Source: Schmidtea polychroa
Taxonomy: Eukaryota
Length of the DNA: 64,000 nt
NCBI GenBank assembly: GCA_044892525.1
Contig: CM097885.1
Location: 149,854,001-149,918,000, forward strand
Reading direction: 5' to 3'
Positions within the stretch are counted from its first letter, which is position 1; the number at the start of each line of letters is the position of its first letter. The translations under genes were made by a program, and so were the position numbers. The notes below the pieces were generated by a model that saw only the letters and a list, made by a program, of their open reading frames with translations, made no database searches and had not been told where the DNA came from. Below, in pieces: positions 3,129 through 60,356 of the stretch.

Positions 3129-3304
3129 TTAGATATCTTGTTGTTTTAATAATTTGGAATTGGCGGTTTTTGTGAATTAAATAAAACTTGTTATTTATAA
3201 ATTCTTTGAATAAATATATATTGTTAGTTTCAAGATTTTTCTGCGAAATTTAAAGATGGATCTAAAGATGGATTTAACTGTTAATAAATCAATTTCTTAT
3301 TTAC
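3129..3304 (+). repeat. Candidate short 3' LTR of the Gypsy relic
   Basis: Directly follows the PPT, contains AATAAA and ends in TTTACA. The 5' end reads TTAGATA instead of TG, and the partner LTR is outside the window. Confidence 0.4.
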
Positions 3305-6886: not shown

Positions 6887-9210
6887 GTTATTATAGTAAT
6901 TTTTTTATAGCTACTGATCCTAGTCACCATGTCATGTTTCTTATTGGACACGATGAGGATGAAGAGATATTATATTTTGATTTCCGAAAAATAAAAATGT
7001 AAATAATAATCACTTAATAGCTCAATGATATTTATCTAATTTATCAAAATAGTAATTTCAAAAATTAATGTGTCAATAAACTTTTTTTCCCAACTGTTAG
7101 TCATTGGTTTATTTAAACTTAATTCATATATTTTACCTTTTGTGTAACTGTATTGAAATTTGTTGTGTTTATTTTGCAAATAACTGAATATAATCTGCAA
7201 ACTCTCATTGACATTTTAACCAGATACTCATTGATTATTTTATTGATGCATGATATTTTGAAATTAATTAACCGGTAACCTTTAATTGTTCACAGCATGG
7301 TAAAAATATTTTGAATCTCTCTATTTCTAATTTATTTATTTTTTTTACGTTCACATCATTTATTTAATGTTTTTAATCTAATTGGTTGATCTCACCTTCA
7401 TCCTCCGATTCTTCTGAAACCCCTTCTACCTTCATTCAAAAAATTACAAATTCTGCTTCGTGTTGAAATAATAATATCTCTAGGCGATCCAACCGCTTTC
7501 TCAGATGGAAGTTTTCTTCCTTCAAATCCGTTATCCTCCCATGCATATGTTGGGCTAGAACTGATTTCTAGACCCAAAACTCTAATTATGACTAAGGTGC
7601 GTAGGTACATAGCACGCAAACAGCAATAAGCCCAGTTAAATAGAAAAATACACCAAATAAACAATATTAATTAAGGAAAAAACAACAAAAAATATAAACA
7701 CAGAAATTAAATAAAATGATACAGATGCAAGAAGTAGTGCAAGAAACTTTCTCAAAACACAAAATTACAAAAAACAGACTCGAATAGCTTAGAAAGATGT
7801 TAAAACATCGGAAAATTCTAGAAAATCCCAGAACATTTCATAAGAATGGCGATAACCATCATGAAAGTCATATAAAACAATAAAAGTAATCAAATACAAT
7901 AATTAGTTATAAAAATAAAAATTCTTAAAAAGAAATTCAGAAAAACATCAATAAAATAAAAATTAATTTAAAATTAATATGGAATGTTCTGGAACCTTTC
8001 CAAATCCATCATGGAGGTAAATTTAGCAAGAAATAAATAGAAAATAAAAATTTAAAAATAAAAATAAAAATTATGGCGCAAAAATTGCCATTAAAAATAT
8101 CAAAAATAGAAAATAGAAAATTCTAGAATAAAAAGAATTCGAGTTTGTTTTAATGCATCAATACATACACGTGTACTTGCACACACAAAAATAGGTATAT
8201 ATACCGACGCATTTTAGTCACAAAAACACTCTTTATGCCAAAAAGTTTTCTTCGACACCAGAAAATCGATAATAAGGAAAATTTTATTGTATTGTTTATT
8301 CATGTATAATTATACGTATATGTTTATTTCAAATCACTTAAATATTATGATGCTAATTTATGCTGGCTTATTGAATTTTTTTTAATTTTTTATGTACATT
8401 TAAGCAAGAGTGATCATTGTCGTCTTAAAAGTATTTTGCTCACGACGATGACCAGCCTTGCTTCCAATTTAATAAGATCTCATGCACCAAATTTGGGTCA
8501 ACAACCCCACATGCACTAAAATCACACTTTTCTCATAACCAGAAGTCGCCACGAACTATTGGTGTTCAACCATGAGTAGGGCGGGTAAATCCATCTTGGT
8601 AGTTGGTATGGTCATAGGGACTATGCGGACAAAACAATTTCTGGGATACTAATCACGGGTAAATAACACAATAGGGCCTATCGTACCGTATTCAGTTGAA
8701 TCGGGAAAGTAGGTAAATTTTAATTAATTCGACCTTTCAGTAAATTACATACTATACTAACTATACTATAGGAGACACAACCTTAGGAAAATCTAAACGG
8801 GAAATATCCCAGACTTAATATTCTACAAAACACTCTAGTAGTCGGTTAATTGCACGAAATAGTTCAAATATTTAATATGCTCAATATAGAATAATATTAA
8901 TATACTATAATTGATGCTATCTATAATTATGTTTAATCGAAAGTTTAATGATTAAAACCCCGAATCTAGATCGAGTTTAACAAACCCAAGACATTGTGTA
9001 ATGATACTTTTTTATAAATTTAACACCCCTGAAAATGTTGTTAAACGAACTTTATATAATGTCATCAAAAATTAATTGGAAATACAATACGGTAGGTCTA
9101 TCATATTTTCCTTATACAGCCTCCAAAAAATTCATATTTAGAGAATCCTAGCCGGAATTTAATAGCCCAAAGGCATTTTTCACATTAGCATGTAGATTTT
9201 GGCACTTGCT

Positions 9211-15786: not shown

Positions 15787-18245
15787 TTAATGACCTCCCA
15801 ATGCGTCTCTGTGCTTGGATGGGATAAGAATTAATGCTTCTTCATTTTTCCAACACTTATGTATTCCATTATGAATTACATACTTGCTGTTTGCATCTAT
15901 GAGTCCTTTCCAATCTTGTTCTTTTCTTATTTTAACCGCTTGTTCCATAAATTGTTTTAATTCACTGTCGTTTTCCTGATCGTTTTGTAGTTCAGACATA
16001 TCATTAAAAGCTTTGATTGCGGCGAATATAATACCTACCATTTTTTCAGGTGTTCCTTCACTATCATTTTCTGGGATTCTTGACATTACATCTGCATTTG
16101 TGTTAGCTTTACCTGTCCGATATTTAATCTCAAAATCGTATTCTTGGAGGGCTATTGACCATCGGATTAACTTACTAGCTGAATCTCTGTGTTTCATTAA
16201 CCACTGTAGTGTATTATGATCCGTATAAACAGTAAATTTTCTACCCAATAAATATTGTCAAAATGTAGTAATTCCATACATTAACGCTAGCGTTTCCTTT
16301 TCAATAGTTGAATAGTTTTTCTTGTGGGATCTCAGTGATCTTCTTGCGTATGCTATTACGTGGTCCTTTTCACCTTCAAACTTTTGGCCCAACACCGCGC
16401 CCAATGCGACGTTGCTTGCATCAGTCATCAAGATAAATTGTTTCGTAAAATCTGGACATCGTAATATGGGAGTTGTCACTAATTTCTCTTTTAAAATTTT
16501 AAAAGCGCTTTGTTGTATTTGCCCCCATATAAATTTCTTATTTTTCTTAAGTAACTTATTCAATGGTTGAGCGATATATGAGAGAAATCTTTTATAAATT
16601 TTCTGTAATACCTAGCCAGACCTAGAAATTGTCTGACTTGATCGGCGTCTTTCGGAACTGGGTACTCTTCCAGTTTTTTGATATTCTCCGGATTACTTTG
16701 TAACGCTCGCCGTGATATTATATGTCCAACATAAACTACTTCTACTTTACCCCATTCACATTTCGATGGTTTTATTTTTAATTTTGCGCTTTTGAGCCGT
16801 TTGAATACGGTTTCTACATCTCTGAGGTGTTCTTCAAAATCATTTGAAAATATTATTATATCGTCGATGTATACCAACGCATGTCGAATACTTCGTAATA
16901 CAAAATTCATTCCCAGTTGGAATGTAGCTGGGGCTCCTGTTAATCCAAATGGTAACACTTTGAATTCATATAGTCCTTTGCCATCAGAGAACGCCGTCTT
17001 TCCTCTATCTTCCTCTTTTACTCTAAATTGATTGTACCCTTTGTTTAAATAAATAACTGTGAAATATCGGGCTTCTCCCATTTGATTGAACATTTCTTGA
17101 GGTACCGGAATTGGATAGGTGTCTTTCCTCGTAACATGATTTAGCTTCCGATAATTTACGCAAAATCGTAATTCTCCATCTTTTTTCTTAACTATCACTA
17201 TTGATGAGGAGAATGGAGATGCACTATCTCGAATTATTCCAAATTCCTTCATTGCTGTAATCTGTCGGTCACTTTCCTCTTGATGAACGTATGGGATTCT
17301 GTATGGCTTTATTTTAATTGGAGTTTCGTCTAATAACGGTATTTCATGCTCAATTACATTGGTTAAACCCAAATCATATTCGTGTTTGGCGAATATGTCT
17401 CGATATTTTCTCAACAGTTTTTGAATTCCTTTTTTTGTATTTCATTTAAATCATTGTTTACCACTTCAGACTCTTTATATACCTTGACGTTTCTCGGAAT
17501 TTTTCAATTAGTTTCAATAGACATTTTTGATAACTTTCTAAATTTTGTTTTTGGGTGTAGCTGAACCGGTTTATTACTACTATTCGTAATATGGACTGGT
17601 ACTATCTGATTTTCCACTTTGACTATTTCGTCGCATATCGTTATATCATATTTTTGACTAGTGTTTGGTTTGGCTCAAATATGAAATCACCATTATCCAC
17701 ACTTGTGGTATTTGCACAGTAGACCATCTTCGATTGTTGTGGTATTGTCAGTGTCTGATTCAGAAACACTTTACTTGCCCTGTGAATTATTTCTCCTGTT
17801 TCTCCTGCTATCAAATTACCTGTCTTTAAATCAAGTGAGATTCCGTCCAGCTGCTCTAATATATCCATGCCGATCAGACATCGTACTGGACTTCCGTTCA
17901 TTATGAGCGCATCGTGCGCTATTATTCGATCTCCAATATGGAATACGACGTTAAGTTGTCCAATTATGTTTAATTCGTTTTTTGATAATGATCTAACTAC
18001 TTCGTCTAACTAGTTCTTGGCTTTATTTGCATTCTTTCCTTCGCGTTTAATACATTTTCCAAAATTATTGTGTGACTAGATCCCGAATAAACTAAAGCTT
18101 CCACTTTATATTTGTTCATTTGTATAAATATTCGGAGTTGTTTTCCTCTTTTTGTTAATGTCATCAATGAGTAATTGCATGGTAAACCTAACATATTCTT
18201 TCTTTCGATCTCCGCACTAGAAGGCGCTCGACTCTCTCCTGCCAC
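15787..18245 (-). pseudogene. Ty3/Gypsy pol (protease, RT, RNase H), frameshifted, integrase deleted
   Basis: Protease LVYSGSSHTII (catalytic D to Y) ...CLIGMDIL. RT RFCVNYRKLN, PFGLTGAPATFQ, YIDD. RNase H TDASNVALGAVL, STIEKE, TDH, NADVMSR. Homology stops at ..LGGH, at the start of the integrase zinc finger. Confidence 0.92.
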
Positions 18246-18515
18246 TCTTTCACATTGTAATGCGATATTTCGACTGGTTTCATTTCTCGTAATCGATCAA
18301 CTGGATAAACTGGTGCTGCTTGCATGAATGATTTTGGTATACATAATTTTGTAAACGTATCTACGCTACTCGCATTCAACAGTGGTTCTTTTAAGATTTG
18401 ATAAGTTCTCAATGCCTCCTTATTTACTTCACTTAGTTCTTGGTTATCTACATATAACGGTGCACTATCACCCTCGTTGTCTTTGTCATTGTTCTCGTCC
18501 CTTGAAGGAATTATA

Positions 18516-19660
18516 CTAGCATATTGGCGCCTTGAGTATCTCCAACTCCTGGTATTGATGATGAGTGATGAAGAATCTTGCCAGTAATGGTATGCAACCA
18601 ATTACTAGCTTCCACGACCAACCTGTTATCGCGTATAGCCTGTGTGTTGAAAGGACCTGCGATATTATTAATTTGATTACAACACAAATTACATAAATTC
18701 CAATCAATCTGGCGCACGCTTGTCCAATGAACATAAATTTTCCCCAGATCTTTTTCATCGTATTATACATCACTTTCTTGTAATGATCTGGAGTTAACAG
18801 ATATTCGTAATTTACCTTCCCACTTCCGCTTGGGAGGATTGTATCTACCATTTTCATTATTACTATTTCTTTATTTGATGGAAATAACAAATTTCTGCGA
18901 GCTTCCTCAATATCTTCGCTTGAGTAAATTCCACTTTGCGATAATTTTTCCAACGATGTGAAATTCACCAAATATTGTAATTCTGTCAATTTTAAATTTT
19001 CCGGTGTCTGTACTTCTCGATGATCTGGCAACGCAATCCACGATTCTGGTGTTAGTCTGTATAGTGGTGCTAACAATCTATTACATTGTAATACTTTAGG
19101 TTTCACGTCCTCTTCCAGTAAGATTCGTGTCATAGACTCCATAAATCGTAAATTTCCATTTAAATTTACTGGTAACTCGTTGGTGCATTGATCGTACTTT
19201 GTCAATTTGACTGGTACCGCTTTACATTCATAGCTATATAGTGCTTCACCGAAGATTCTGACAAACACCCCATTTTCTGTAATTAACATTGGTGCTACCA
19301 AATTAGGATTGGTTATAGCCATTACCATCTGGTTTCGGAGTATTTCTTTATTGAGATTGTAATCATTTATAATAACTTCTCGGTACACATTTTCAACGGT
19401 ATTTTGACCGAAGTGAAACAAATAATCTATTTTGTTATTGAAGTAATTTGTCAACTTAATATCTCCTGCATGTATTATTGTTTGAGCCTCTGTAATCACC
19501 TCCTGGAATACATATATATCTTTATAATTTGTCTCATAGACACTTTGTCCACACTTTGTTTTAGTGTCTTTTCTCAGAAATCGCATCCCATCTTCTGTCG
19601 ATGTTGACATTAACACTGTTGGAGTGTCCTTCATCCATTGAGGAGTAATTCTGGTCGTTG
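18516..19660 (-). CDS. Env-like viral glycoprotein fragment, chuvirus/Monjiviricetes (class III fusion) type, N-terminally truncated, with TM anchor
   Basis: 372-aa ORF (frame open to ~19690) with ordered motifs CG..VYET, GEALYSYEC..V, C.NELPV, TRIL, C..LL.P.Y, SGIYSSED, LLFP, W..F..IG..A..IGI...KLII and GWS. I recognise these from chuvirus-like G proteins and their endogenous copies. No signal peptide. Confidence 0.82.
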
Positions 19661-20592
19661 ACTCGTGGCTGGATCCATTCTTATCTTCTCAGGTTTTTCC
19701 CTAATCTGCTCTCCCGTAATTTCTTTAAAGTTCATTGACTTCAATTGCACTAAATTGCACCTTTTTGTATCGACATCGTACACTAAGTTCTCTTCACTTT
19801 TCATTTCATTTATACTTGGTAATTCCCTGTTACCCATGCTCATTTCCTCGTTATCCCTTTTAGCTTCATTTTCCGATCCCATTTCCTCATTTCCCATTGT
19901 TTCTAATCTCTGCGATTCATTGATTTCCTGATCAATTTCTCCTGGGTCATCTACAACTTCAGTTTTAATCTCTGCTGTCTCTACATTTTCATTATCCATT
20001 TCCTTATACGGATGCCAAAACGGCATCATTACTGCATCTCTTTCCATTTCATTACTTTGGTTTGTTGCGTATACATTATTAATACAATTTGAATAGCTTT
20101 ACACATAACTTTATTGCTCTTTTCAGTTCACTCTGGGTTGGTGGCATCAAACTGAGTTCTGCGATCCATCGTTTCAACTGGGAGTTGTCAGTTTCCATTC
20201 TAGTAAGCCATCTTTCAACTCGGGCTAAAAATGCCGTCGGATTCTCATCTGATCTGATTTTTCTTACTTTTGTGGCGGGTTTTCCTCACCGCCTGACACT
20301 GTTCCAAATATCATATGAGATTCAGTTTCCTCGTCAGATTCGAATTTAGCCACTAATTTGTTCAACTTTTGTCGCATTTCTCGAAATTCATTTTCCATCT
20401 TGTCTTGAAATTCATCTCTTTGCGCAAATGTCATATTACTGGTAGTTGGCATATCTTCTTGGAACCTGATCGATTTCTTTAAAATAGGTCTGCTAAATCT
20501 CTCTGAGTTCCTTGGGCATGATCGCGCCATATGACATTGTATTTCTTCCTTTGTGGTGACAGTGACGTTGAAGATGATCTTGATCTAGTGAA

Positions 20593-21513
20593 GCAGTTTC
20601 TGCTAATATGCCCTTTCTTCCCGCATCGATAGCATTCGACATCACTTTTGATCCTTTTGTTATCCGTGAATCTCTTGTTAGGGCTGGGATTTTTGCCATA
20701 TTTGAACCAACATTGATTTGAGTAATGTCCGGACTTTTTGCAATATTCGCACTGAGGGCTATTTGACTGTCAATTTGATTGCACGTTCATGGCTGATCTA
20801 CTTGATTGAAATCTATTGCTCGGTCTCAAAATTGAACTGCTGGTTTGGTTTATTTTCTTTTCATCCCATGGTGCTCTCACCGGAGTAATTGACCTCTCAC
20901 GTCTCTCCATATTAACTTCAAAAGCATCTGATCTTTTCGCACTTTTCAAGTTCAGCTCGATCTTCATGGCTTTCTTCACGAGCTCATCGATTTTAGAAAA
21001 TTCCACATAACATAGGGCCTTTTTGATTTCGGAGTGGGCTCCGGTTATAAACTGATCTTGTAACAGCTCTTTAACCTGCTTGGCCATATCTAATTGATCT
21101 GGTTTGACTTCAAAGGATTTATCTGCTTAAGTGGTCAAATGATAAGCAAACTCACTGACCGATTCATCTGGACCTTGAGCTCGATTATAGAATTTCTGTC
21201 TCACGATTCTTTTGATATCTCCACCAATCAATTCCAATGCCATTACATCCTTCAATTTGGTCCAATCATTGCCAATGTTTCGTTCATCGACTTGCGGCCA
21301 GGCTTCCCTTGCCGCGCCCTTCAAATAAAGTGGGAATCTCTGAACCATAATGGCTTGTGTCCATCCATATGCTGAGGCATACATATAATAATCTCCCATA
21401 AAATCAGCGAAATCAACAGGGTCTCCTCCATATTGATTGACTGGTAATTTTTGACAACTTGCGAAATCAATCATCTCTCTATTGAGAGGCAAAACAGCAT
21501 TATCATTTACCAT
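20593..21513 (-). pseudogene. Gypsy gag with two CCHC zinc knuckles
   Basis: Retrotransposon-gag-like YGGDPVDF...LYLKGAAREAW...QGPDESVSEF, in-frame stop at 21127-21129. Knuckles CEYCKKSGHYSNQC (20710-20751) and CYRCGKKGHISRNC (20593-20634). Confidence 0.88.
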
Positions 21514-21769
21514 TTGGGTTTGTTTCTGACTTTTGAGGTTGTATCGACTTACTTTGTGCTAAACTTCAAACGTAAAACAATAATTTAAATTTACTTTTCA
21601 AATTCTTTAAATCTTCCACTAATAACCTTTAATATTTATCTCGTCAGTACTCCAATACTTTTTAAACTACTTTCAATTATTCTCCACCGACCTTCAATAA
21701 AGTCGATATTAATTTCCAATAAAAAAAATTTTTTTTCACTAACTTTCACTAATTCTCAGCCGACTTTCA

Positions 21770-21787
21770 ATCACGTCGGGCTCACCA
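21770..21787 (-). promoter_or_regulatory. Primer-binding site, tRNA-Trp type
   Basis: Minus strand TGGTGAGCCCGACGTGAT is a 17/18 match to the complement of the canonical animal tRNA-Trp 3' end (TGGTGACCCCGACGTGAT). It lies 7 nt inside a ...CCCAACA LTR end. Confidence 0.85.
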
Positions 21788-21794
21788 GAATATA

Positions 21795-23087
21795 TGTTGG
21801 GTTTTAGTTAATTTAAGTCGGTAACCTCTGACTCCTCGTGTCCTTTTAATCAAAACAATAACTACCCAACGTATATCTGAATCACAAAAATTATATTCTT
21901 TTTTCAACAATAAACAATCAGTAATCAATGGTTCAAGTTTGACCGATTCTTCGCTCGGTGTTGATGCTTTGACAAAAGATAATATTCACCTTTTATTTCC
22001 TTAGGTTCTCTTGATCAACGTTTTCCTTTTTCTCTTTGACTCGATCCTTTTTCACCTTTTCGTATTCATATTCTATATCTTCTTTTTCCCTAATCTCCTT
22101 AATTCGTTTTTACCTTTCGCCTATTCTCGTTTCTTCTTACCCTAACTGAGGCAAAATGCCGATTTGCTCTGATTTTCCCATTCCTTATATACTCTTCGAA
22201 ATCGGAATGACAAATCGTTATTGCCGAGCCAATCTCTCACTTGACATTCGACTCCACATAGTCCAATGAACAAAGATAATTAATGGCCCGCCCGGCCTTT
22301 CTGCACACACTATCTTCTTGTTCTTTTCCTATTAATCATTTTGTCACGCTAATGGGCCCAAATCTTCCTTCTATTTACTTTTCTCTTTGTTTACCCAGCT
22401 CGGGTTTCCTTCATCTCTCGGGTTCTCCATTGGCTCGGGTTTCCCATTAGCTCGGGTTTCCCATTAGCTCGGGTTTCCCATTAGCTCGGGTTTTCTATTA
22501 GCCAATTAATTAATTAACGTTTTCTGTTTCAACACATTTGAATGCTTTTCGACCCTTTCTAACCATTTTCTGATAAATCCCTAATCATCCTCTTGTTGAC
22601 CATTAGCTAATCTATACCTGTCCCGTTTTACCAATTCGATTTCGATGATTTTACAATTTATTGATTTTTCTCGGATTTCCGGATTCTTGCCTTTCGCAAC
22701 TGCTTTTGCCATTTCCTAATACTGCCTCCATCATAATTTCCTTTACTATCAATTCTGTGCATGATCACGCTTTTATTTGTCTTTTTTCTTCACTTACTTT
22801 TATTTAAATTTTCAACTTAAATTTCATTTAAATTTCATTTAAATTTATTTTAATTTACAGACCTCAACAGGAATATCATCTTGATTTTTGCAATTCTTTG
22901 ATAAACTCTAGCCATAAAATATTGGTGGCTTATTCGTGTTCGTAATCCGTATGATATCTTGTGATTTCTGCGTTTTTACTTGCTATTTCCTAATCTATAA
23001 AGTCTGCTAAAAAGAACTGCATATAATAAAGTAATAATGCGTATTTGCTAATTTTTTTTGATTTAAATATATTTTATTTTAATAACA
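21795..23087 (-). repeat. Putative 5' LTR (~1.3 kb) of the env-bearing Gypsy
   Basis: TGTT...AACA termini. In minus-strand order: enhancer-like 17-bp repeats, TATATAAG (22184-22191), AATAAA (21992-21997), then the PBS. The upstream boundary is uncertain because no partner LTR is present. Confidence 0.6.
22399..22501. repeat. 17-bp tandem repeat x5-6 in LTR U3
   Basis: CTCGGGTTTCCCATTAG: three perfect copies plus degenerate flanking copies. Confidence 0.9.
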
Positions 23088-28589: not shown

Positions 28590-29624
28590 TTATAAATCAG
28601 TTTGTCCACCATTAAAATTATTATCACCAAAAAATTGATTTCTATTGTAACTAGAATTTTGCTGCATAGCGCCAAAATTAGAATCAGACGAATTTCCTCG
28701 ATAGTGTGTTAAGGATTTAGGGGTTTGATGATAACTTGTTTGCGGTCTGTTGTATTGACCGGTTACATCAAATGATGGAATTTTACCTGATAAGAACGGG
28801 TGATCATTCTTAATTAAAGGAGTTGATGTTTGAGGTTGAGAATTCGGATTATCATGCATCATTCCAGATTCATATGGTGGCATATTGGTAAGATTAGAAT
28901 CAAATGAATTTCCTTGGTAACGATTGTCAAAAGAGCTATTTGAATAACCGGAAACGGGGAAGTTGTTTGAACGAGGATTAAAATCGTCATTTACGTAATT
29001 TTCAGAATTAAAGCGGTTATTATTACCAATAAATTGATTTCTGATGAAACTTGAGTTTGGCCTTTCAACAAACGGGATGTTACTATTGGAAGGACGTGAA
29101 TAAGCTGAATTTCTAATAGGAGTGAAATTTCCTCTGGATTCACCTCTAATATTTCTATTTTCAAAAGAATTTTGAGATGATGGAAAACGAACCGGACCAC
29201 GGGTATAATTGGATTCAAATCCTCTGAATTTGTTTGGGACACCTCGGTTTTGATTAAATGGTTTATTAGATTGCCAATTAGATTGCCTTTTTCTGTTAAA
29301 AGGAAGATTATTAGATGATGTAGCATTTCCGTGGCCACAAACAACAGGATCGCTGAGTTTTGTGACAATGTTCATAATTTGACTATCGTGATCATCGGGA
29401 TTCATGACTATATCTGGATCCATACAAACTTTCACCATTAACCCCTCTAACGCTGGTCTGAGAGCTAGAATTTCTGCGGCCACTTCAAATTCCATATCCA
29501 ATGACAACCACTCATCGAGAATAATCATTTTATTGGTGTATGTTACTTTTCTGGCCCCAAACATAAGAAGCTGCAGTGGATTAATCATAGACATTTGCTT
29601 GCAAGATATTGCTCGAGTTCTAAT
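28590..29624 (-). CDS. DHX9: DHX9 exon 13 (OB-fold end plus Asn-rich tail)
   Basis: IRTRAISCK...PLQLLMFG...LDEWL, then a low-complexity tail to TAA. Confidence 0.94.
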   Translation of the reverse strand: MRTRAISCKQMSMINPLQLLMFGARKVTYTNKMIILDEWLSLDMEFEVAAEILALRPALEGLMVKVCMDPDIVMNPDDHDSQIMNIVTKLSDPVVCGHGNATSSNNLPFNRKRQSNWQSNKPFNQNRGVPNKFRGFESNYTRGPVRFPSSQNSFENRNIRGESRGNFTPIRNSAYSRPSNSNIPFVERPNSSFIRNQFIGNNNRFNSENYVNDDFNPRSNNFPVSGYSNSSFDNRYQGNSFDSNLTNMPPYESGMMHDNPNSQPQTSTPLIKNDHPFLSGKIPSFDVTGQYNRPQTSYHQTPKSLTHYRGNSSDSNFGAMQQNSSYNRNQFFGDNNFNGGQTDL

Positions 29625-32600
29625 CTAAATATTAAAATAATTGTAATAAAATTAATAAATTTTTTGGATAACTTCAATCTACTAATTTATCGCTTTATGC
29701 CCAAAATATGCCTGTAAAATGAATATAACAACTTATTATTGTCACCTGAAAACGAAAATATTCTTAATGAAACAAATTTTGTTTGATCTTATTGATTTAT
29801 TTTTCAAATTCTCAGATACTTTATATACTATTTAAATAATATCAACGACATTATTTAGAGAAACCCTTTATGAACGTATGCGTGGACAGTGGCCAACCCA
29901 TTTGCAAAATCTCGCAGAAGTGATAGGTACAATCGAGGCTCGAAAATCCTTAATCAACTATTTAGCATTTTGAGACTTATATTTAAACAGTAATTAAGAA
30001 ACAGGGTAAAGTAAAGTAAAACAATATCAGTTCAAATGTACAAATTATAGCATAATTTCAAAATTGAACTTCTCAAATAATATTCTAATACCGGAATAAG
30101 AAATATAATTATAAAAATAAAATATTAAAATAGAAAATTGTAAATTGCGTTAAATGTTAGACAGCAAAATAAAACGAACATTGTCAATTTCAACAGGAAA
30201 TAAAACTTGAAAGTGGCAAAGTAATTCAAAGCAAATAACCTAATTATTGCTTCATGGCATGCATACCTATTGTTTTTTTCTCGAGATATTCAATAAATTG
30301 CTAATGTATTAGTATTTTTTAATACACAACATGACATTAATAATAGTATTTCCATATGAAACGAAAAATTATAATCAATGAGAATGGAATTGCAAAAAAA
30401 TTATACAAAAACTATAAAGTCCTTACCTTTTCACCAAAAATGAAGAATGGAGAGGGAAATGTTGTAATGTAGTTACTACAATTAACTGATGACTTGTGAA
30501 CCAATGCAGCTTTTCCTTCTGTTGTCAATACTTTACGTTTTTCTTTGTGATAGCAAACATTGGGATACAATCCTAAGACTAGTAGAGAGAGAACATTATT
30601 AAGTGTTGTACAATTGTTGTCATAATCAAAAAATTGCGATTCCAAACATTCCTGTGGAAATCCAGTATTTATTAAAATGTTTTTCATCTAAAATATATCT
30701 ATTCGTAATCATCAATAAATATAATAATCAATTAAACTTGTGAAGCTGCGTCTTTTGACATTTTTAGAATAGATGGATTTAATCCTTTAGATGCACAAAA
30801 TTCTTCCTCAGAAAATCCACGGCTTTGAACATAACTCCATTTTTGAAATGCATTCAAGATAGCAATATGATCTGAACATCTGTTTGCAGACAAATCGACT
30901 TGAACTCTGGTCAATCTTTTACGATCTGGAGGAATAATGAAAGGGTCACCCAAGGAGGTACACGCCGCAACTGTTGCACACGCATCTCCAACACCAAATA
31001 AACAACCAAATATTATCATTTTTCCCATTCTAGGTTCAATTGGTAATCGAGCAAGGATTTTACCGAGGGGTGTTAATTCATCATTTTTATCAAAAGCTTT
31101 CATTTCTTTTAGCAGATGTTCCGCTTCTATTATTGCATCTATTGGAGGTTGCTCAATAGCTCGCGATAAAAATTCTTTCGTATCTCCTAGTTTTAGAAGT
31201 TTAATCATCAATGCAACATCATGTAATGCTGTTCGGAGAATTTCTGGAGTTTGATGTGTTTCTAGTCGTTCGAATCTGGCTCGGCTACATAGATGAAATG
31301 CGTAACCTTCACTGACTCTTCCTGCGCGACCACGCCTCTGTTCTAGATTTGTTTTTGAAGCCCAGACAGTGTTATAACTAGTAAGATTATTTCGAGAAGT
31401 AAACATCTTCACTTTTGCACGGCAAGAATCGATAACAAACATGACATCATTGATTGTGATACTACTTTCCGCAATATTTGTAGCAAGAATAATTTTCCGT
31501 ACACCTTGCCGTGTTGGTAGAAATACTTTTTTCTGATCAATCCGTGGAACTTGTGAATGAAGTGGCAGAATTATATATTTATCAGATCCAAATTTAGGAT
31601 GCTTGGTCAAATTTTTCAGAAGTAATTGAATAATATTCCACCCAGGTAAAAATATGAGCACAGCACCATCTGGATGAATTGTTTCAATATATCTAAATAT
31701 CAGAAATTCTTAATTAATTTAATTGTTAATATTATGAATAGGAGGAAATCCTATTCTGGAATCGAAAATGTCATAAACATATTTATAGTTTATTATATCA
31801 TATATAAATAAAAATCCCAATAACGAATAAATGGACATTGAGGCGAATACGAATACGTCATTTAATAAAGAATGGGTTGCAATATCTTAATTAAACAATA
31901 AAATGTGCTATTTTGCGCCCAGAATAATTATTTGAAAAATATTGTTCATTTATTCCATGATTTTGAACATTTTGGGCTTTATCAATATTTATCAAATAAT
32001 AATGAATTTCTTGTCATTAAATACGTTTATTTAAGCAGTCAATTAATTTTGAAATTATAAATATTAATTTATGAAATGCAAGGATAAAATTTAAATCATA
32101 AATACAAAGAAACACTAACTGAAGAAGTGATTCGATCAACTCGAAACTAATTTCCTTTTCTGATAACTTGCCCATGGCCATTTTTGTTTGTGGTTTATAG
32201 GAAGCATCACAAATCATATTACAATTGACATCAGATTCATCGGGTTTCCCATTATTCTTTGTTGGGGAATCTTCATTTACATCAATCGAACGGGATTTAT
32301 TATCCTTTTTGAATTGTTGATCTGGTTGGAAGTTTAATGTTTCTATGCAATCTTCGAGAAAAAAATCTATATTATTATTTAAAAACAACTAATATTAAAT
32401 AAAACAGTTACAGTTGACAGGAAAAGTACGGCCTTCAATTTCTAAAACGAAAACGGAGGGAAAGAAATTTTTAAATAAATTAACATCGATAGTTGCACTC
32501 ATTAAAATTATTTTGATCTGCTGATAACAAGAAGCCATGTCCTTCAATAAAATCATCAGGAAGTCAGTCTAAAGTAATAAATCAACTATTAAATTTGTGG

Positions 32601-42371: not shown

Positions 42372-43239
42372 TGTAATGTACTGTTATTTTTGTATGTATT
42401 TTAGTGTTCACAATTAGGAATTGTGAATACTAAAATATAAACGGTCACCATCTGGGAAATCCAGATTTTCAAAAAAAACTATATAGCGATAATTTAGAAA
42501 ATTGAAAATAAAAAAAACAAAAATCAATAAAAGTTAAAAAATTAAATTACCATAGAAAGAAAGAAGCTACTAGAAACAAAACTAGAAAATTAAAAGTCAA
42601 TTAAAAAATTTATTATACCAAAGAAAGAAAGAAGATATAATAAAATATTTATTGAAAATAGCAAAGATATTACATTATCAAAGTATTCCCAAATAAACCA
42701 GAGTATCCACCAGCAATAAAAATTAAACGAGGTTTTGAACATTTACATTGGCAAAGAACGAATAAACTAGAAAATCGGAATTATTTACATCGAGTTTTCC
42801 TCGGGATTATCAAAATTATTATCTCAATAAAACATTATAACTGAACCGGAAAGTTTCATCTTATCCTATTGTTATTACCAAATTGTCCTCATTTTTTTCG
42901 GTGAATTTATCGAGTCCTATAATTATCCGAAACAAATACTTAATTCCATTATAACACCTTCAAAAACTATTTCAGAGCCTAATTAACCTACCCCCGGACT
43001 CAAGGTTTTTCTATTTTGTTTAGATAAAAGTTTGAGTATAATATATTATTGTTTATTATTATTTTATTTTATTTGTTGTTACTCAGCACTCACCCTGATT
43101 GTCCCAACACATTTTGTTATCGGTGACTCTTTCGGGCTCATCAAATTTCTCATCAACTAACAACTCATCAGATAACAACCTCCAAACATAACAACTCTAT
43201 ACCACACGCAAACAAAATAGTCAAAACAATAATATAACA
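42372..43239 (+). repeat. 5' LTR (868 bp)
   Basis: TGTAATGTAC...AATATAACA, near-identical to 47493-48363. Confidence 0.96.
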
Positions 43240-43241
43240 AT

Positions 43242-43253
43242 TGGTGTCAGAAG
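43242..43253 (+). promoter_or_regulatory. Primer-binding site, tRNA-Leu type
   Basis: TGGTGTCAGAAG, 2 nt after the 5' LTR, complementary to the 3' end of animal tRNA-Leu. Confidence 0.85.
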
Positions 43254-43436
43254 CAAAGCAAACACAACACGACACTCGCATTCGACGTTTTCTTTCAATC
43301 ACTACGCCTTTCAGCATACTTATTATAGAAGTATAAAGGATAGTGACTCTTTTGGCTGAACACAGTAAGCCATATCCTTGAACAATCTCATTTTTTTAAC
43401 ACAACAAGCAATAAAAAAACATCAACAAACCAATTA

Positions 43437-44611
43437 ATGGCATCAAATCAAACAAATCCAACAAACATTTCACAAACATCCAATAATAATGAAAACACAC
43501 ACATGATGGAAAATACGAATTACTACTATAACCCAAACACTAGCACAGATAATACACACACCATAAACTCAGTAATTAACCCAAGAACAAACATCCCAAA
43601 CTACTTTAGTGACGAAAATGGGACACCCCAAAATGGCTCGAATTTGCTAAATTAACCCTAACCCTATCGGGAATAAAATCAACGAAAACGCTATGTTCAA
43701 ACATCATCGCTGCACTCCCAAGTAGCAAACTGAACGAAATAGCTGACCAAAATGAGGAAATTTCAAAGAGCGAAGATCCGTTCAACAAGCTTTGCAACGT
43801 CCTAACAAACAAAAACAAAATCAACAGGAGGCAAATGCTGGAATCATGTCTCAACAACACACAACTTGGCGACAATAAACCAACAGATTTCCTTCGCCAA
43901 CTAAAACAAAAATTGGAGTACCTCCAACCAAACATCACTAATTCGGGATCAAACGAATTAGTATAAGAATTTTTTATGCGAGCAATGCCGCCCGAAATTA
44001 GACGTATCCTCGCAGCCAGTAGCAATTCGGACGTAGAAACGCTAGCAGACATAGCAGATAAAATCAATGAAGAAATTTATCCTACTATATGCAGCACACA
44101 AAACTACAACAGAAATAAAACTAATCACAACAACCAACCAATCAACAAAAACACCGAACCAAATGAAACAACAAACCGATTAATAAACACTTTGATCAGC
44201 AAATTCGACGAAATAATTGTCGAAAACAGACAAATAAAAGCGGAACTAGCCGAAATAAAAGAGAAATACAACAGGCAAAATTTCAATCGAAACGAAAACA
44301 GAGACCTATTCAACAGAAACAATTTCAACACAGACCAACTATCATATAATCTCAACAGACAAAACTATGACCGACCACCCAACGGAAACAACAGACAGAA
44401 CTCCAGCCACAGACAATCCCCAAACGGACACTACAGAAACCGGTCAAACTCACCAAACCGATACAACAATTACCGAAACAGCAGCCCAGAAAGGGATTCA
44501 AGAAAAGATTTCCTAAACAAAAACCACTGCTACTTTCATAACAAATTCGGCGACAAAGCATATAAATGCATAAAACCCTGCGAATTCCACAAAACAGAGC
44601 AGGAAAACTAA
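43437..44611 (+). pseudogene. gag with CHCC motif (frameshift ~43620, stop 43964-43966)
   Basis: LGDNKPTDFLRQL, RAMPPEIRRIL, LADIADKI and CYFHNKFGDKAYKCIKPC. Confidence 0.88.
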
Positions 44612-47320
44612 AAATGTCACCATTGATAGCACCCACATTTGGTGACAATAAATATACTTTCACGGTGAATTCAAACAATACAGATTTTCTAATCGACACA
44701 GGTTCCGTGATCTCCCTATTACCACACTACTTATACAAAAATACAAAAACTACAGAAAAGTCACTAACCGCTGCTAATGGCTCCAAAATTAAAACATTTG
44801 GCCAACATACAATAACACTCACAATAAATTCAAAAAAATACAATTGGCCATTCACAATCGCAGAAGTACAACAGTCAATAATCGGAACCGACTTCCTAGC
44901 AAATTACAACCTAATAGTGGACTGCCGAAACAAGAAAATAGTCGAAAACAACAAAACCGACAAAGAAACAGCCAGGAACACAACATCAAACTTTTCGAAA
45001 GTAGACATCGGCGTGATTCAAACAAGTACACCAACTATCAAAACAATCAAAACTATTGAACACGCACCAAAAAATGCCACACTACTGGAAAAATACGATA
45101 AACTCTGCGAACCAGTAACTTTCGATGGAAATTCAAACCACACTACTGAACACGCAATACTGACAAACGGAAACCCAGTCCACTCAAAAGTAAGACCATT
45201 GGATCCCAAAAAAATAGAAATCACAAAAAATATATTTAACGATCTGTTGGAAAATAATATAGTAAAACATTCAAACTCAGAATGGTCTTCAGCACTGATG
45301 CTAAAACAAAAAGCTAACGAGGAATGGAGAGCTTGCGGCGATTACAGACTCCTGAACAAAATAACAGAGCCAGACAGCTACCCATTACCTATAATAAAAG
45401 ACATAATAAATCGAATAAACGGCGCAAAATATTTTTCAAAAATTGACCTACAAAAAGCATATCATCAGATCCCAATTAGAAAAGAGGACATAAAAAAGAC
45501 AGCAATAACAACACCGATCGGCATGTTCGAATACAACCGAATGCCTTTCGATCTACGAAATGCCGCAGCAACTTTCCAACGATTCATGGACCAAACAATA
45601 AAAAACAACAAAAACACAATTGCTTACCTAGACGACATTCTAATTACAAGCCCAGATAAGGCAACTCATCTAAAAGATGTAGAAAAAGTATTCGAAACAC
45701 TAAACAATGCAAAACTAAAAATAAACACTCAAAAGTGCGAATTTATGAAAACGGAAATAAATTTCCTAGGTCACACACTAAACGACAAAGGAACACAACC
45801 AATAGAAAACAAAATAAACAATATAAAAAATTACAAATTACCAACAAACACAAGAGAATTGAGAAGATTTTTGGGAATGGTAAACTACTCGGTTACCCAG
45901 ATCCAGAACTAGAGTATCAACTAACTACAGACTGTTCTGGTTTTGCAATGGGCGCAACAATTTTCCAGGAAAATAAATTTGGCAAACAACCACTGGGATT
46001 TTTCTCGAAAAAACTAAAATCACATCAAACAAGATACTCAACATTCGACAGAGAACTCCTAGGAATACACGAAGCAATCAAACACTTTCAACATTTACTC
46101 GAAGGACGAACCTTCAAGATATTCACAGATCACAAACCGCTAACAAACGCAATAGAAATGAAAAACCCTTCACCAAGGCAGATTAGACAAATCAATTTCA
46201 TTTCACAATTCAACTGCACAATAAACTACGTAGCAGGAAAATCAAACATAGCAACAGATGCTCTATCTAGAATTGAAAGTGACATAAACTCCCTAGAATT
46301 CGGAGAAATAATCGAATTAGATCAAATCAAAACCAGACAAACCGATACATTAAGCAAACTGCCTACTAAACACAGCCTGAAACTACAGGAACTCGACGGA
46401 ATATGGCACGATGTCTCCAACGAAAGCAACAAACGAATCCTACTACCCCAAGAATTCCGACAAGACTGCATAAAAAAATACATAAAAAAACAATCATAAC
46501 CGATCAAGGCAGGCAATTCGAATCGGAAATGTTCAAAATACTGTGCAATAAATACAATATCAAAAGAAATCGAACAACACCTTACAACCCACAATCAAAC
46601 GGAAAAATTGAACGGTTTCACAGAACATTAAAAGAAAGCATCAGAACAAAAGCTAATGACCAAAACTGGTTAAATCAACTGCCAACAATATTAATCGAAC
46701 TGAGAAATAGCCCAAACTCAACAGATAATGAAAGTCCAGCATACAAAATTTTCGGAAAAGCAACAAACTTGACATCACTTAAATCAGATACAAACAAAAA
46801 CACTGAAAACAGCAAACAAATAACAAACAAAAATAGTGAAACCACCGAACAGAAACCAAAAGGAATCTTAAAAAGAAGACCAGACTCCGAATTAGACGGA
46901 AAAATAGTATTAACAACAGATTTCATCTTAATAAAAAAACCATTCACAAAAGGATTCGAATCCAAATACGAAGGTCCATTCAAACTCCTAGAAATCAACA
47001 AGAACGTCGCCACAATAATTAAAAATAACAACAAAATGAAAATAAACATCAGGCGGATAAAACCATACCACAAGAATATAGACCCCAAAACGACTCACCG
47101 AAAGACAAAACACAAACCCAAACACAAACAAAAAAACAACCAATTCACAAAAAAATTACATTCAACCACAAAAATTCAATCAAAATATTCGACAAAGACA
47201 CAATACTGGCTCCACTATACAAAAAACGTTACAGCGAATGCTTTAAATAAAAACACAAACATACACAAACAAACACACGCACAAACAGCGTTAATTGTAC
47301 AGTTTTTATTTTCCTTGTAA
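44566..47320 (+). pseudogene. pol (protease, RT, RNase H, partial integrase) with two internal deletions
   Basis: LIDTGS, YLDD, TDCSG, TDHKPL, TDQGRQFES, SNGKIER and YEGPF are present. The RT-RH connection is deleted at ~45890, and the integrase HHCC plus first Asp are deleted at ~46480. Confidence 0.92.
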
Positions 47321-47492
47321 ATACAAAACAAAATGTAAATTTTTAATTTTATTGAGGTTGTAGATACAAAGAAACAGAAACAAAATACATAAAAACATAT
47401 AAAACATACGGAAAAAAAAGGTTATTGAATGTAATTTTTTATGTTACTGTTTATTGATTCATGTTAACCTCCTGTTTTAAAGGAGGAAGTTA

Positions 47493-48363
47493 TGTAATGT
47501 ACTGTTATTTTTGTATGTATTTTAGTGTTCACAATTAGGAATTGTGAATACTAAAATATAAACGGTCAACATCTGGGAAATCCAGATTTTCAAAAAAAAA
47601 CTATCGCTAAATTATCGCTATAGAAAATTGAAAAAAAAAGCCAAAAATCAATAAAAGTTAAAAAATTAAATTACCATAGAAAGAAAGAAGCTACTAGAAA
47701 CAAAACTAGAAAATTAAAAGTCAATTAAAAAATTTATTATACCAAAGAAAGAAAGAAGATATAATAAAATATTTATTGAAAATAGCAAAGATATTACATT
47801 ATCAAAGTATTCCCAAATAAACCAGAGTATCCACCAGCAATAAAAATTAAACGAGGTTTTGAACATTTACATTGGCAAAGAACGAATAAACTAGAAAATC
47901 GGAATTATTTACATCGAGTTTTCCTCGGGATTATCAAAATTATTATCTCAATAAAACATTATAACTGAACCGGAAAGTTTCATCTTATCCTATTGTTATT
48001 ACCAAATTGTCCTCATTTTTTTCGGTGAATTTATCGAGTCCTATAATTATCCGAAACAAATACTTAATTCCATTATAACACCTTCAAAAACTATTTCAGA
48101 GCCTAATTAACCTACCCCCGGACTCAAGGTTTTTCTATTTTGTTTAGATAAAAGTTTGAGTATAATATATTATTGTTTATTATTATTTTATTTTATTTGT
48201 TGTTACTCAGCACTCACCCTGATTGTCCCAACACATTTTTTTATCGGTGACTCTTTCGGGCTCATCAAATTTCTCATCAACTAACAACTCATCAGATAAC
48301 AACCTCCAAACATAACAACTCTATATCACACGCAAACAAAATAGTCAAAACAATAATATAACA
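47493..48363 (+). repeat. 3' LTR (871 bp)
   Basis: Near-identical to the 5' LTR and preceded by the PPT AAAGGAGGAAG (47479-47489). Confidence 0.96.
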
Positions 48364-52258: not shown

Positions 52259-53482
52259 TTAAACTGCACTACCGTTGAAAGGTCGGTTCGTTACACTTTC
52301 TGGCCAATAAGCAGTAGTTCGGGGATTTTCTTCTTCATCTGAGCCTTCTGGAGAAGTTTGAGGTCGTGATGGAACTCTTGAGGCTGGTTCACTTGTAGCA
52401 ATTTTGTGACACAATCCATTTTGATGTTCAATTCTAAACCAATAATCGCAAGTACACTCTTGATCTCCGGTTTCCATGCAACCTCCAAGGGATGTTTGTA
52501 ATAAAACTGGAATGTAAGTAGCACATCGGTCCATATTATTTGAAGAGCAAGTCCTAGCTCGAACTAAATGTATTCTTTCTTGACTTTGTGACAACGAACG
52601 ATAAGAATGCTTTGATTTCTTTTTCATAACTTCACTTGGGATTTTATCATTATGCCCAGGAGCATGAATGCACAAACTAGCATTTGAACCTTCTTTCATT
52701 TTAGATGAAGACTTTATATCTTTAACTAAAAATGCAATTGGATCTTGATTATCTGTCGAGTAAGGGTATTTTGATGATGTCTGATTGGGTTGATTTTGGT
52801 TGGAAAGTGAGCGATGGTTTGGTACTGAAGGATAACTTGATTTATCAGATTCACTTGGATAATTATTTGAAATCACATTGTCCTCAGTAGCCAAAGGTGA
52901 ATAAATATAACCTGGTTTTGAGTAATTTAATGAAGATTTACGTTGAGTGTTTGTTGAAGAATTTTTCATAATGTTATTTTGATTCACTTTGACTTTTAAA
53001 ACTTCGTTTCGTTTGGAAATGGATCTGAGATTATTTGTCTGGCTTCTTGACTTTGACATAGTACTTCTTACTCTCTTTGATATTGCTTTATTACTTCGTC
53101 CATACCCAGCCCAACAAGTTTGAGATATTCTATCATCATCTTCATCAGATTCTCCATCAATATCAGCTTCTTCCCAGAACGAATTAGGATCAACAAATGG
53201 ATCTCCAGCAATACTTAAGTCATCAGATTTAAAAGCTTCAACAGATCGTAAATGGTAAATCAAAGTTTTAAACAACTGCCAATCGCCAAAATTCATTTCC
53301 ATTTCATTCTGAAGTTGATCCATATCACAAACACTAAGAACAAGACCGGTAACATTTAATTGAATCAACTTCTCCTTATATTTCTCAATATTTTCTTCCG
53401 AAGAGAGGCCTTCTATTTGACACATAAGGATTCCAATTTCATATTTATCCAATTGCGATAAATCTTTTCCAGGATATCCGTC
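52259..53482 (-). CDS. KIDINS220: Kidins220/ARMS homologue, terminal exon (SAM-like domain plus C-terminal tail)
   Basis: QIEGLS..NIEKY...LNVTGLVLSVCDMDQLQNEMEMNFGDWQLFK matches the Kidins220 SAM-like segment (QIEGL...NINGRVL..C..DELKKEMNMNFGDWHLFR). TTTTTAG acceptor at 53483. Open frame to TAA at 52259, ending in -SAV (PDZ-ligand-like). Confidence 0.78.
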   Translation of the reverse strand, partial: DGYPGKDLSQLDKYEIGILMCQIEGLSSEENIEKYKEKLIQLNVTGLVLSVCDMDQLQNEMEMNFGDWQLFKTLIYHLRSVEAFKSDDLSIAGDPFVDPNSFWEEADIDGESDEDDDRISQTCWAGYGRSNKAISKRVRSTMSKSRSQTNNLRSISKRNEVLKVKVNQNNIMKNSSTNTQRKSSLNYSKPGYIYSPLATEDNVISNNYPSESDKSSYPSVPNHRSLSNQNQPNQTSSKYPYSTDNQDPIAFLVKDIKSSSKMKEGSNASLCIHAPGHNDKIPSEVMKKKSKHSYRSLSQSQERIHLVRARTCSSNNMDRCATYIPVLLQTSLGGCMETGDQECTCDYWFRIEHQNGLCHKIATSEPASRVPSRPQTSPEGSDEEENPRTTAYWPESVTNRPFNGSAV

Positions 53483-59600: not shown

Positions 59601-60356
59601 TAACAAATTTCGTATTGAATCTTTTTATATAATAGTAGATAAACTTATTATTGAGATGCGTAAACGTCTTGAAGCATACGGAATGTTATATGAAAGGTTT
59701 AATTTTTTAGTGGACAGAACTTTGACAAATGATGAAATAGTTTCGAAAGCAAACAAGTTAGTGCAAATATATTCTTCAGATGTTGAAGATGCATTTTGTG
59801 ACGAGTTTTTATTATTTTCACGAATGTATGGAGATAAAAAATCAGTGAACGAAATGTTAGTTGCACAAATAAATGATAAATTAGTTACCAGTTTTCCCAA
59901 TGTAAATATTGTGTTACGAATTTATTTATCAATATTTGGTACGAATGCGGAAGGGGAACGTAGTTTTTCAAAGCTTAAAAGAATTAAAAATTGTCTCCGA
60001 TCAACTATGGGGCAGGAACGATTGTCAGCACTAACACTTTTATCTATTGAAAGTGATTTAATGCGAGAGATTAGTTTCGATGAGGTTATTGTCGAATTCG
60101 CAAATAAAAAATGCAGAAAAGTTATTTTAGAAAATAATTGAATAAATTGTTTACTAAATTAATGTTATTTTTTTATATATTTTTTTGAAAATAAATTTTT
60201 AATTATTATGAATTAAATCAATTTTTTTTTCATACTCTGGTTAAATATTTATAATATACATTTTTCGTAAGTATAAATACATATTTTCGTAGGCCATTTA
60301 ATATTCGTAGGCCCTAGGCAATGTGCCTACTGTGCCTATGGGATAATGCGCGCCTG
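56640..60356 (+). mobile_element. Full-length hAT transposon (3717 bp)
   Basis: Perfect TSD TATCTGAT. Imperfect TIRs CAGACCCGAATTA / CAGGCGCGCATTA. Subterminal CGTAGGCC motifs at both ends. Confidence 0.94.
57575..60141 (+). pseudogene. hAT transposase (TTF-type Zn finger, DUF4371/ZMYM1-like, dimerisation domain), single frameshift ~59250-59290
   Basis: Motifs WLIYSPSTGTVHCYICKLF, SIDSTPD, YDNASNM, CAAHSLNL, TRWS and GERSFSKL. Two long ORFs (572 + 291 aa) overlap at one point. Confidence 0.93.

Follow-up and report, generated by a model that had tools for sequence, protein, structure and literature searches.

The element in the window, by which we mean the whole 64,000-nt stretch of Schmidtea polychroa DNA analysed (CM097885.1; positions follow forward-strand numbering), lies on the minus strand and is very probably the defunct remnant of a multi-copy Ty3/gypsy element, with internal deletions and a truncated 3' end; intact members of the family encode Gag, Pol and, between them, a complete gB-like envelope protein as a single frame of 3,319 residues. 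The position of the glycoprotein (G) between gag and pol in a single frame is the normal layout of this family, and the window copy belongs to an older subfamily (dS of about 0.35 with respect to one young copy). The initial annotation took captured env genes to lie normally 3' of integrase, a premise that is outdated: both the arrangement and the family have been published (PMC6431247, PMC13524379). The window copy is a damaged old member of a known family and, as flagged, matters little: its layout has been in print since 2019, and 215 copies of the family are catalogued. The analysis removes a false lead, that of a truncated envelope kept by the host, and supplies anatomical detail for a young, abundant family: the single Gag-Env-Pol frame, the priming site for tRNA-Trp and, probably, a second membrane protein. 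The planarian host is a model animal with RNAi.

The sequence and Pfam matches of the window copy gave the order first annotated on the minus strand: LTR, PBS, gag, glycoprotein, protease (PR), RT and RNase H (RH). The 5' LTR (21795..22869), with TGTTG...CAACA ends and 76–79% identity to the 3' LTRs of young copies, does not extend to 23087 as annotated initially. The tRNA-Trp PBS (21769..21787) is located 7 nt inside the LTR end and, as proposed, matches the 3' end of the host tRNA-Trp plus CCA over 19 nt; among the LTR, PBS and polypurine-tract hallmarks, the window copy retains only this 5' LTR and PBS. The gag pseudogene (20503..21513; capsid and CCHC knuckles, PF03732 and PF00098) has two stops and one frameshift, and contains the two knuckles originally described; small deletions have damaged a third, and a young copy has three. 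It is followed by a post-Gag linker remnant (20092..20502), terminating at a 746-nt deletion with most of the ubiquitin-like region gone, and by an acidic linker remnant (19788..20091), bounded by a 1,179-nt deletion in which the Bcl-2-like domain, an internal signal and G residues 1–190 were lost. The charged linker of the initial annotation is what the two deletions left of a stretch that originally spanned about 880 codons (coil, ubiquitin-like, acidic, Bcl-2-like, signal and G N-terminus). The G remnant begins at 19787 with about 42 codons in an upstream frame (19661..19787), shifts frame by 1 nt at 19660 and continues in a stop-free frame (18516..19688), which corresponds to the C-terminal 62% of a class III glycoprotein (homology from 19660 to 18523), includes a transmembrane (TM) helix (18651..18707) and is closed by a 23-nt frameshift at 18523. 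Further downstream are the G-to-protease linker (18156..18522), frameshifted according to a comparison of lesions with a young copy; an aspartic protease pseudogene (17817..18155) with a frameshift and the catalytic Asp replaced with Tyr; an RT pseudogene (16499..17427; PF00078) with two frameshifts and the same replacement of the first catalytic Asp; and an RH pseudogene (16079..16498; PF17917 and PF17919) with one stop. A spacer (15800..16078) leads up to the integrase (IN) start, where the copy is truncated (one public contig bridges this end point, at about 15800); neither an integrase core nor a 3' LTR is present in the window.

Places elsewhere in the genome with 91–92% identity to the window G accounted for 105 of the 106 scored, from 2,478 candidates. 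At least 11 distinct loci have one stop-free frame of 3,333–3,361 codons, which bears out the suggestion of a lineage in which env is embedded in the Gag frame. The six full-frame copies read encode Gag, ubiquitin-like and Bcl-2-like domains, full-length G, PR, RT, RH and IN, in one frame, so that G lies between Gag and PR and not 3' of integrase, the alternative that had been raised for intact members. The ubiquitin-like (E 1.4e-5) and Bcl-2-like (E 0.004) matches are below Pfam's cut-offs. The layout is common to two sister families, and the protease follows G in 10 of 11 long public proteins. Young elements are about 16.8–17.8 kb long, with LTRs of about 1.06 kb and the Ty3/gypsy hallmarks of TG...CA LTR ends, a PBS (Trp) and a polypurine tract. 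LTR pairs were found in five of the six young copies (96.4–99.9% identity); a clean 4-bp target duplication was present in one of four copies examined, and two others were ambiguous in AT repeats. The Pfam matches in Pol were, in order, PF13975, PF00078, PF17917/17919, PF17921 and PF00665, with no BEL-type family among the matches of the young-copy polyprotein.

On the basis of its profile match and modelled fold, the glycoprotein is of the Monjiviricetes/chuvirus type, a gB-like class III protein, as the initial annotation had recognized. The window frame matches PF24664 with an E value of 7.9e-62, and young copies cover positions 5–210 and 241–628 of this profile in one frame with hydrophobic flanks. 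The structural model of G (monomer, pLDDT 88.6) gave pseudorabies gB (5ys6) as the best Foldseek match in the PDB (E 1.0e-14), and all the matches listed were herpes gB; the fold is alike, but identity is only 10–13% and the TM-score 0.37. A sequence search of the PDB with the window ORF returned only centrins, at chance level (E 0.6–1), and a word-index protein search with it gave two matches. The young-copy polyprotein contains no R-x-K/R-R furin motif.

The stop-free G frame of the window copy comprises 390 codons, or the 372 aa first described when counted from the first Met at 19634, and is 92% identical to young copies. It has the C-terminal TM that was reported (hydropathy 2.5 at residue 328) and, again as reported, is restricted to the C-terminal part of G (PF24664 positions 244–604 of 653), with nothing signal-like among its first 80 residues (maximum hydropathy 0.47). 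The initial annotation considered this frame remarkable for being unbroken amid broken neighbours, and it is indeed the longest lesion-free stretch (P = 0.046 if the stretch had been chosen in advance). However, for the longest of 15 gaps, the probability of at least 379 codons is 0.60 with lesions at 14 sites across 1,921 codons, so the unbroken state is no more than expected by chance; the RT of the same copy also has a 281-codon gap. The 14 sites derive from 17 indel rows and four stops in the lesion table, after exclusion of three indels that keep the frame, of one compensating pair and of the last row, and after merging of one adjacent pair. The dN/dS between the window copy and one young copy (G 0.10, RT 0.10, Gag 0.13) is low for G but the same as for the dead RT; G evolved under the same constraint as RT. 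We consider it very unlikely that the truncated frame is a domesticated EVE, kept by the host for restriction or to serve as a membrane anchor: despite its Met start, TM and low dN/dS, the frame has no signal segment, a frameshift at each end, and substitutions at an invariant Cys, at a Pro that is 91% conserved and at a Gly of the TM (to Arg). The Cys, which reads Tyr as first noted, is conserved in 98 of 98 aligned relatives. Two of 18 highly conserved G columns are altered in the window copy, and any such change was found in only one of 49 other loci, which, as top-scoring matches, are biased towards intact copies. The 372-aa frame, without a signal and the N-terminal third, is likely to have no function.

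Partial capture of an env gene, also suggested at first, finds no support in the relatives: 46 of 49 loci (43 of 46 distinct places) have all 608 residues of G in one frame, and the remaining three have 569–606. The 1,179-nt deletion, with its loss of the signal and the first 190 G residues, is in frame, and one sister-family copy has lost RT-RH-IN in frame while its LTR pieces match, as might be expected if a non-autonomous subfamily with a shortened G were spreading. However, a 26-nt degenerate pattern of this junction had a single match in 781 Mb, the window itself, and such a subfamily is highly improbable, although the search was for exact matches and diverged siblings could be missed. 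Misassembly of repeated sequence is an extremely improbable source of the deletions. The two large junctions (19787 and 20091) were bridged by no public contig among the 32 of 10,656 records listed, but both have 3–4 nt of microhomology, and public contigs span the 18523 lesion, the 19660 lesion and the 3' end at about 15800 without a single mismatch (both runs come from one study, possibly that of the source assembly, and contig depth at the window is swamped by other copies of the family). The gag-G-pol order rests on other copies, whether or not the window deletions are assembly errors. Taken together, the layout, the class III G and the env-in-Gag-frame lineage of the initial annotation stand, whereas its capture, anchor and host-maintenance readings are not supported.

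Cleavage of the family polyprotein is likely to be shared between the signal peptidase of the host and the protease that the element encodes. The hydrophobic stretch at residues 1019–1037, which follows the Bcl-2-like domain, would thread G into the ER, and the TM helix of G would bring the chain back to the cytosol for PR-RT-RH-IN; signals and TMs were called from hydropathy. G would be the fusogen of enveloped particles, and a 1:1 ratio of Gag, Env and Pol from one frame is odd for building these. Past integrase, the young polyproteins, outside the part retained in the window, have a signal-like segment (2945–2965), a likely FN3-type ectodomain (dN/dS 0.28), a TM helix and a PDZ-ligand-like tail; they thus probably end in a second membrane protein, the ectodomain of which would be exported by this segment and anchored by the last TM helix. 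The top ESM Atlas matches of this module were FN3 at 0.92 (165 shared features and recognition 2013, both below guide values), and a comparison in VIA with a cytokine-receptor chain gave Z 6.7 and rmsd 3.3 over 84 residues. No Pfam fn3 match was obtained with a 233-aa part of the module, and its model (pLDDT 38.5) had no Foldseek match at E ≤ 0.001. An FN3-like motif occurs in five of six modules and nowhere outside them, a lead only, the pattern having been picked after the sequences were viewed. By position and hydropathy, the module was found in all three related families, in Burro1-type copies and in all three public polyproteins extending past integrase. A three-module profile gave no significant match (best domain E 0.14 in the protein collection searched and 0.21 in Burro1-type frames), so the kinship of the modules is drawn from position and hydropathy only; a word-index search with the module had no match among longer proteins, which is weak evidence. 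No description of the module was found in the open-access article text searched; figures, bioRxiv supplements, subscription papers and Repbase lay outside this search. In herpesviruses, gB works alongside distinct proteins that bind the receptor. It is possible, if rather unlikely, that Burro-type elements are two-glycoprotein retroviruses made from one polyprotein, with a gB-like fusogen before the protease and a fast-evolving type I membrane protein (here FN3-like, with a PDZ-ligand tail) after integrase as an attachment or cell-junction-targeting partner. If the second protein sits on particles, the element would divide fusion and attachment between two proteins, and it would offer a way to ask whether these elements move between stem cells.

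The closest catalogued relative is Platyhelminthes_Rhabditophora_Smed_errantivirus_2, one of the GAG-ENV-POL errantiviruses of Chary and Hayashi (eLife 2026, PMC13524379), which is positioned in their POL tree and listed with an HSV/gB-type ENV and 215 copies. It shares with our family the gB-type ENV, the GAG-ENV-POL order and the many copies, and its ENV is identical to that of a young copy at 246 of 251 residues (98%; by-eye comparison of the ENV segment in the paper's supplement). Its LTR and PBS are given as 'none' in the table, whereas the family here has LTRs of about 1.06 kb and a Trp PBS; LTR pairs more than 14 kb apart were removed by a filter in that study, the main text of which does not mention polyprotein, fibronectin, Bcl or frameshift. 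The window copy differs from Smed_errantivirus_2 in being broken and of an older subfamily and, unlike young copies, lacks a full ectodomain between signal/TM and TM. For planarian Burro, an env sharing its frame with the flanking gag and pol was in print in 2019 (Arkhipova and Yushenova, PMC6431247). The Burro1/GYPSM1 polyprotein has a Gag with three knuckles, ubiquitin/SUMO-like and BCL2-like domains, an in-frame env akin to mononegavirus fusion proteins and PR-RT-RH-IN (PMC6431247), the same series as in our family. However, Burro1 exceeds 30 kb, with an ORF1 of about 4,800 residues and BIR/MATH/ankyrin domains, whereas the family here is half that size and its polyprotein has no Pfam match to BIR, MATH or ankyrin. 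Burro1-type copies have a 4,791-codon frame (two of three), long LTR repeats (3.5 kb or more) and BIR in a frame of its own, and are 43% identical to our family in Pol and 33% in the G region. The family is Burro-like in its workings but is not Burro1. PF24664 is also the glycoprotein family of Anakin-type BEL/Pao elements and of chuvirus-glycoprotein EVEs in arthropods (PMC7642597, PMC10084718); the present family differs from these in that Pol is of the Ty3/gypsy type and G precedes the protease in the same frame.

The decayed Ty3/gypsy element at 15800-22869 of the window (minus strand), hereafter the window copy, contains a single LTR, a primer site, gag, a glycoprotein frame, protease, RT and RNase H, in the minus-strand order of the initial annotation, with the LTR bounds revised to 21795-22869; neither an integrase core nor a second LTR was found within the 64-kb window. 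The frame 18516-19688 (minus strand) matched the Pfam Monjiviricetes_fusion profile (E 7.9e-62) at positions 244-604 of 653 and ends in a hydrophobic helix, and no signal-like start was found, confirming that only the C-terminal part of the glycoprotein (G) is present. Over 19 nt, the primer site matches the 3' end plus CCA of a host tRNA-Trp; its offset from the LTR end (window 21788-21794, minus strand) is 7 nt in this focal family versus 3 and 4 nt in two related (sister) families. The tRNA-Trp pattern had 821 genome matches, and nearly all of those listed came from tRNA-Trp genes arrayed in tandem every 284 bp (G000:C4:55.02 Mb, L070). A 199-bp stretch (window 7348-7546) resembles a young copy's 3' non-coding region (78%), and both may contain the same small insert.

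A search of the genome (781 Mb) with the frame 18516-19688 gave 106 scored matches among 2,478 candidates, 105 of them elsewhere in the genome (91-92% identity). Stop-free frames of 3,333-3,361 codons were present at seven loci, and a further search added four. The six of these young copies that were read keep the gag-G-protease order and the in-frame Gag-G fusion for which the initial annotation had proposed a check, and encode polyproteins of 3,319 residues (five copies) or 3,346 (one). LTR pairs of about 1.06 kb were identified in five (99.9, 99.9, 99.7, 99.5 and 96.4% identity) and none within the 30 kb examined for the sixth; element length was 16.8-17.8 kb in the three measured. Five long frames were mutually 98.8-99.4% identical, which indicates recent movement of the focal family.

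The young-copy polyprotein runs from capsid and three CCHC knuckles through a region resembling ubiquitin (E 1.4e-5), an acidic stretch and a region resembling Bcl-2 (E 0.004), both matches being below Pfam cut-offs. A hydrophobic segment (1019-1037) then precedes the whole G and a TM (about 1586-1610), after which come protease, RT, RNase H and integrase. PF24664 matches to the two halves of G lie in a single frame. The closest PDB structures to a G model built from 98 sequences (pLDDT 88.6) were herpesvirus gB (E 1.0e-14, TM-score 0.37), in agreement with the gB-like class III fold anticipated from the sequence.

Relative to a single young copy, the window copy is missing 746 nt at 20091 and a further 1,179 nt at 19787, each with 3-4-nt microhomology. 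The 19787 junction pattern had a single genome match; public contigs span 18523, 19660 and the 3' end of the window copy, and none of those listed spans either large deletion junction. The larger loss removed the Bcl-2-like region, the signal segment and G residues 1-190, and young copies have the whole G, so that a partial capture of the glycoprotein is not supported. The frame itself is bounded by a frameshift at 19660 that cuts G and a second at 18523 that ends it. The initial annotation had noted that this ORF is unbroken amid broken gag and pol, and had considered host maintenance. Over 1,921 codons we counted 4 stops and 10 frameshifts (14 sites, with three in-frame indels, one compensating pair and the terminal row left out and one adjacent pair merged); a clean gap of at least 379 codons arose in 60% of random lesion placements, or 4.6% if the stretch were chosen beforehand. 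The dN/dS between the window copy and that young copy was 0.10 for G, 0.10 for RT, 0.13 for Gag and 0.06 for RNase H (dS about 0.35 for G, RT and Gag), and 0.45 for protease, with few changes. These values are read as selection on G during lineage activity, with no particular protection of the remnant itself. Of 18 highly conserved G columns, two are altered, including the Cys whose loss had been noted and which is invariant in 98/98 relatives, and a Gly in the TM is replaced by Arg; among 49 other loci, which are top-scoring matches from 46 distinct places, one carried any change at the 18 columns. Tyr replaces the catalytic Asp of protease and the first catalytic Asp of RT. Domestication is thus not supported, given the gap length within chance, the RT-like dN/dS and the missing Cys.

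Gag-G-Pol is encoded as one frame with the domain order given above, and hydropathy, together with general knowledge of polyprotein viruses, suggests how it might be processed. The segment C-terminal to the Bcl-2-like region would serve G as an internal signal (small residues occupy -3 and -1 in 3/3 families compared), the TM of G would bring the chain back into the cytosol, and signal peptidase and the element's own protease would free the parts, with G serving enveloped particles as fusogen. Such a scheme would give a Gag:Pol ratio of 1:1, for which it does not account.

The young-copy frame extends about 375 residues beyond integrase, into a module absent from the window copy. There a hydrophobic segment (2945-2965) is followed by a region rich in beta structure that bears four N-glycosylation sequons, and a TM (3275-3300) precedes the short tail. 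Both sister families share this plan and two sequon positions, with 37-40% identity to the focal family in the module versus 78-89% in RT, RH and IN. Within the module, dN/dS was saturated for both pairs involving the focal family; for two sister-family pairs it was 0.28 and 0.29. The tails end in ETRL (focal family) and ETWV and ETFV (sister families); Burro1-type frames have a terminal TM and a tail ending ATLV, and their upstream signal-like segment, seen by eye, falls below the hydropathy threshold used. These endings fit the pattern of class I PDZ ligands. In all three public polyproteins that extend beyond integrase, one hydrophobic segment follows it and a second lies close to the C-terminus; these parts show no detectable sequence relationship to the focal module. 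The predicted ectodomain may be of FN3 type: ESM Atlas returned FN3 at 0.92, and a separate structure comparison with a poor model gave a weak match (Z 6.7), each below the guide value of the tool concerned. We consider the module probably a real type I membrane protein; an attachment role is doubtful. No published description of the module was found in the texts of the openly accessible papers searched.

Downstream of the polyprotein, both sister families have another frame, about 490 codons long (L083:3605-5065 and L085:4334-5824, plus strand, in stretches of the source genome) with RNase_T exonuclease matches (E 4.9e-5 and 4.1e-4); no coding-like frame of at least 110 codons was found at the equivalent place in four focal-family copies. 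In one sister-family copy (L078; G000:C52:148574-152874, minus strand), G, protease and the post-integrase module remain joined in a single frame although RT, RNase H and most of integrase are missing; its LTR pieces are 100% and 97% identical, and the copy is possibly a non-autonomous form. A head-to-tail sister-family element (L082-L083, G000:C3:53.22 Mb), with a 13.5 kb repeat identical (100%) over the 4.7 kb compared, is either a tandem duplication or an assembly repeat. The window also contains an unrelated second Gypsy-type element at 42372-47930 (plus strand; LTR pieces 99% identical, gag-pol frameshifted), in which no env was seen, DEAH helicase exon-like frames at 28590-31709 (minus strand; Helicase_C, HA2; C-terminal frame RG/N-rich), a KIDINS220-like SAM domain in frame at 52259-53482 (minus strand; E 1.3e-21), a DUF4371 (hAT-like) transposase split over two frames at 57461-60141 (plus strand) and a DDE_3 transposase flanked by inverted repeats at 440-1919.

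Identity of the focal family with Burro1 was ruled out: Burro1-type copies, so classed from their size and a BIR frame, have frames of 4,791 codons, and Pol identity to the focal family is 43%. Among long public proteins with the same G, protease lies downstream of G in 10/11. HBK71150.1 (P0009), a G-PR-RT-RH-IN polyprotein under a Flavobacteriaceae genome-bin label, is likely a misbinned animal retroelement, and P0002, a metagenomic protein joining a 68-residue G piece to an XPD-like helicase, is likely a gene-prediction chimera. Chary and Hayashi 2026 (PMC13524379) describe gB-type ENV in GAG-ENV-POL order in errantiviruses of Nematoda, Bryozoa and Platyhelminthes, including Smed_errantivirus_2 with 215 copies, which differs from a young copy at 5/251 residues compared by eye. 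The initial observation is confirmed in part, and the suggestion of a lineage with env inside the Gag frame is correct, as the young copies show, but this layout was already known.
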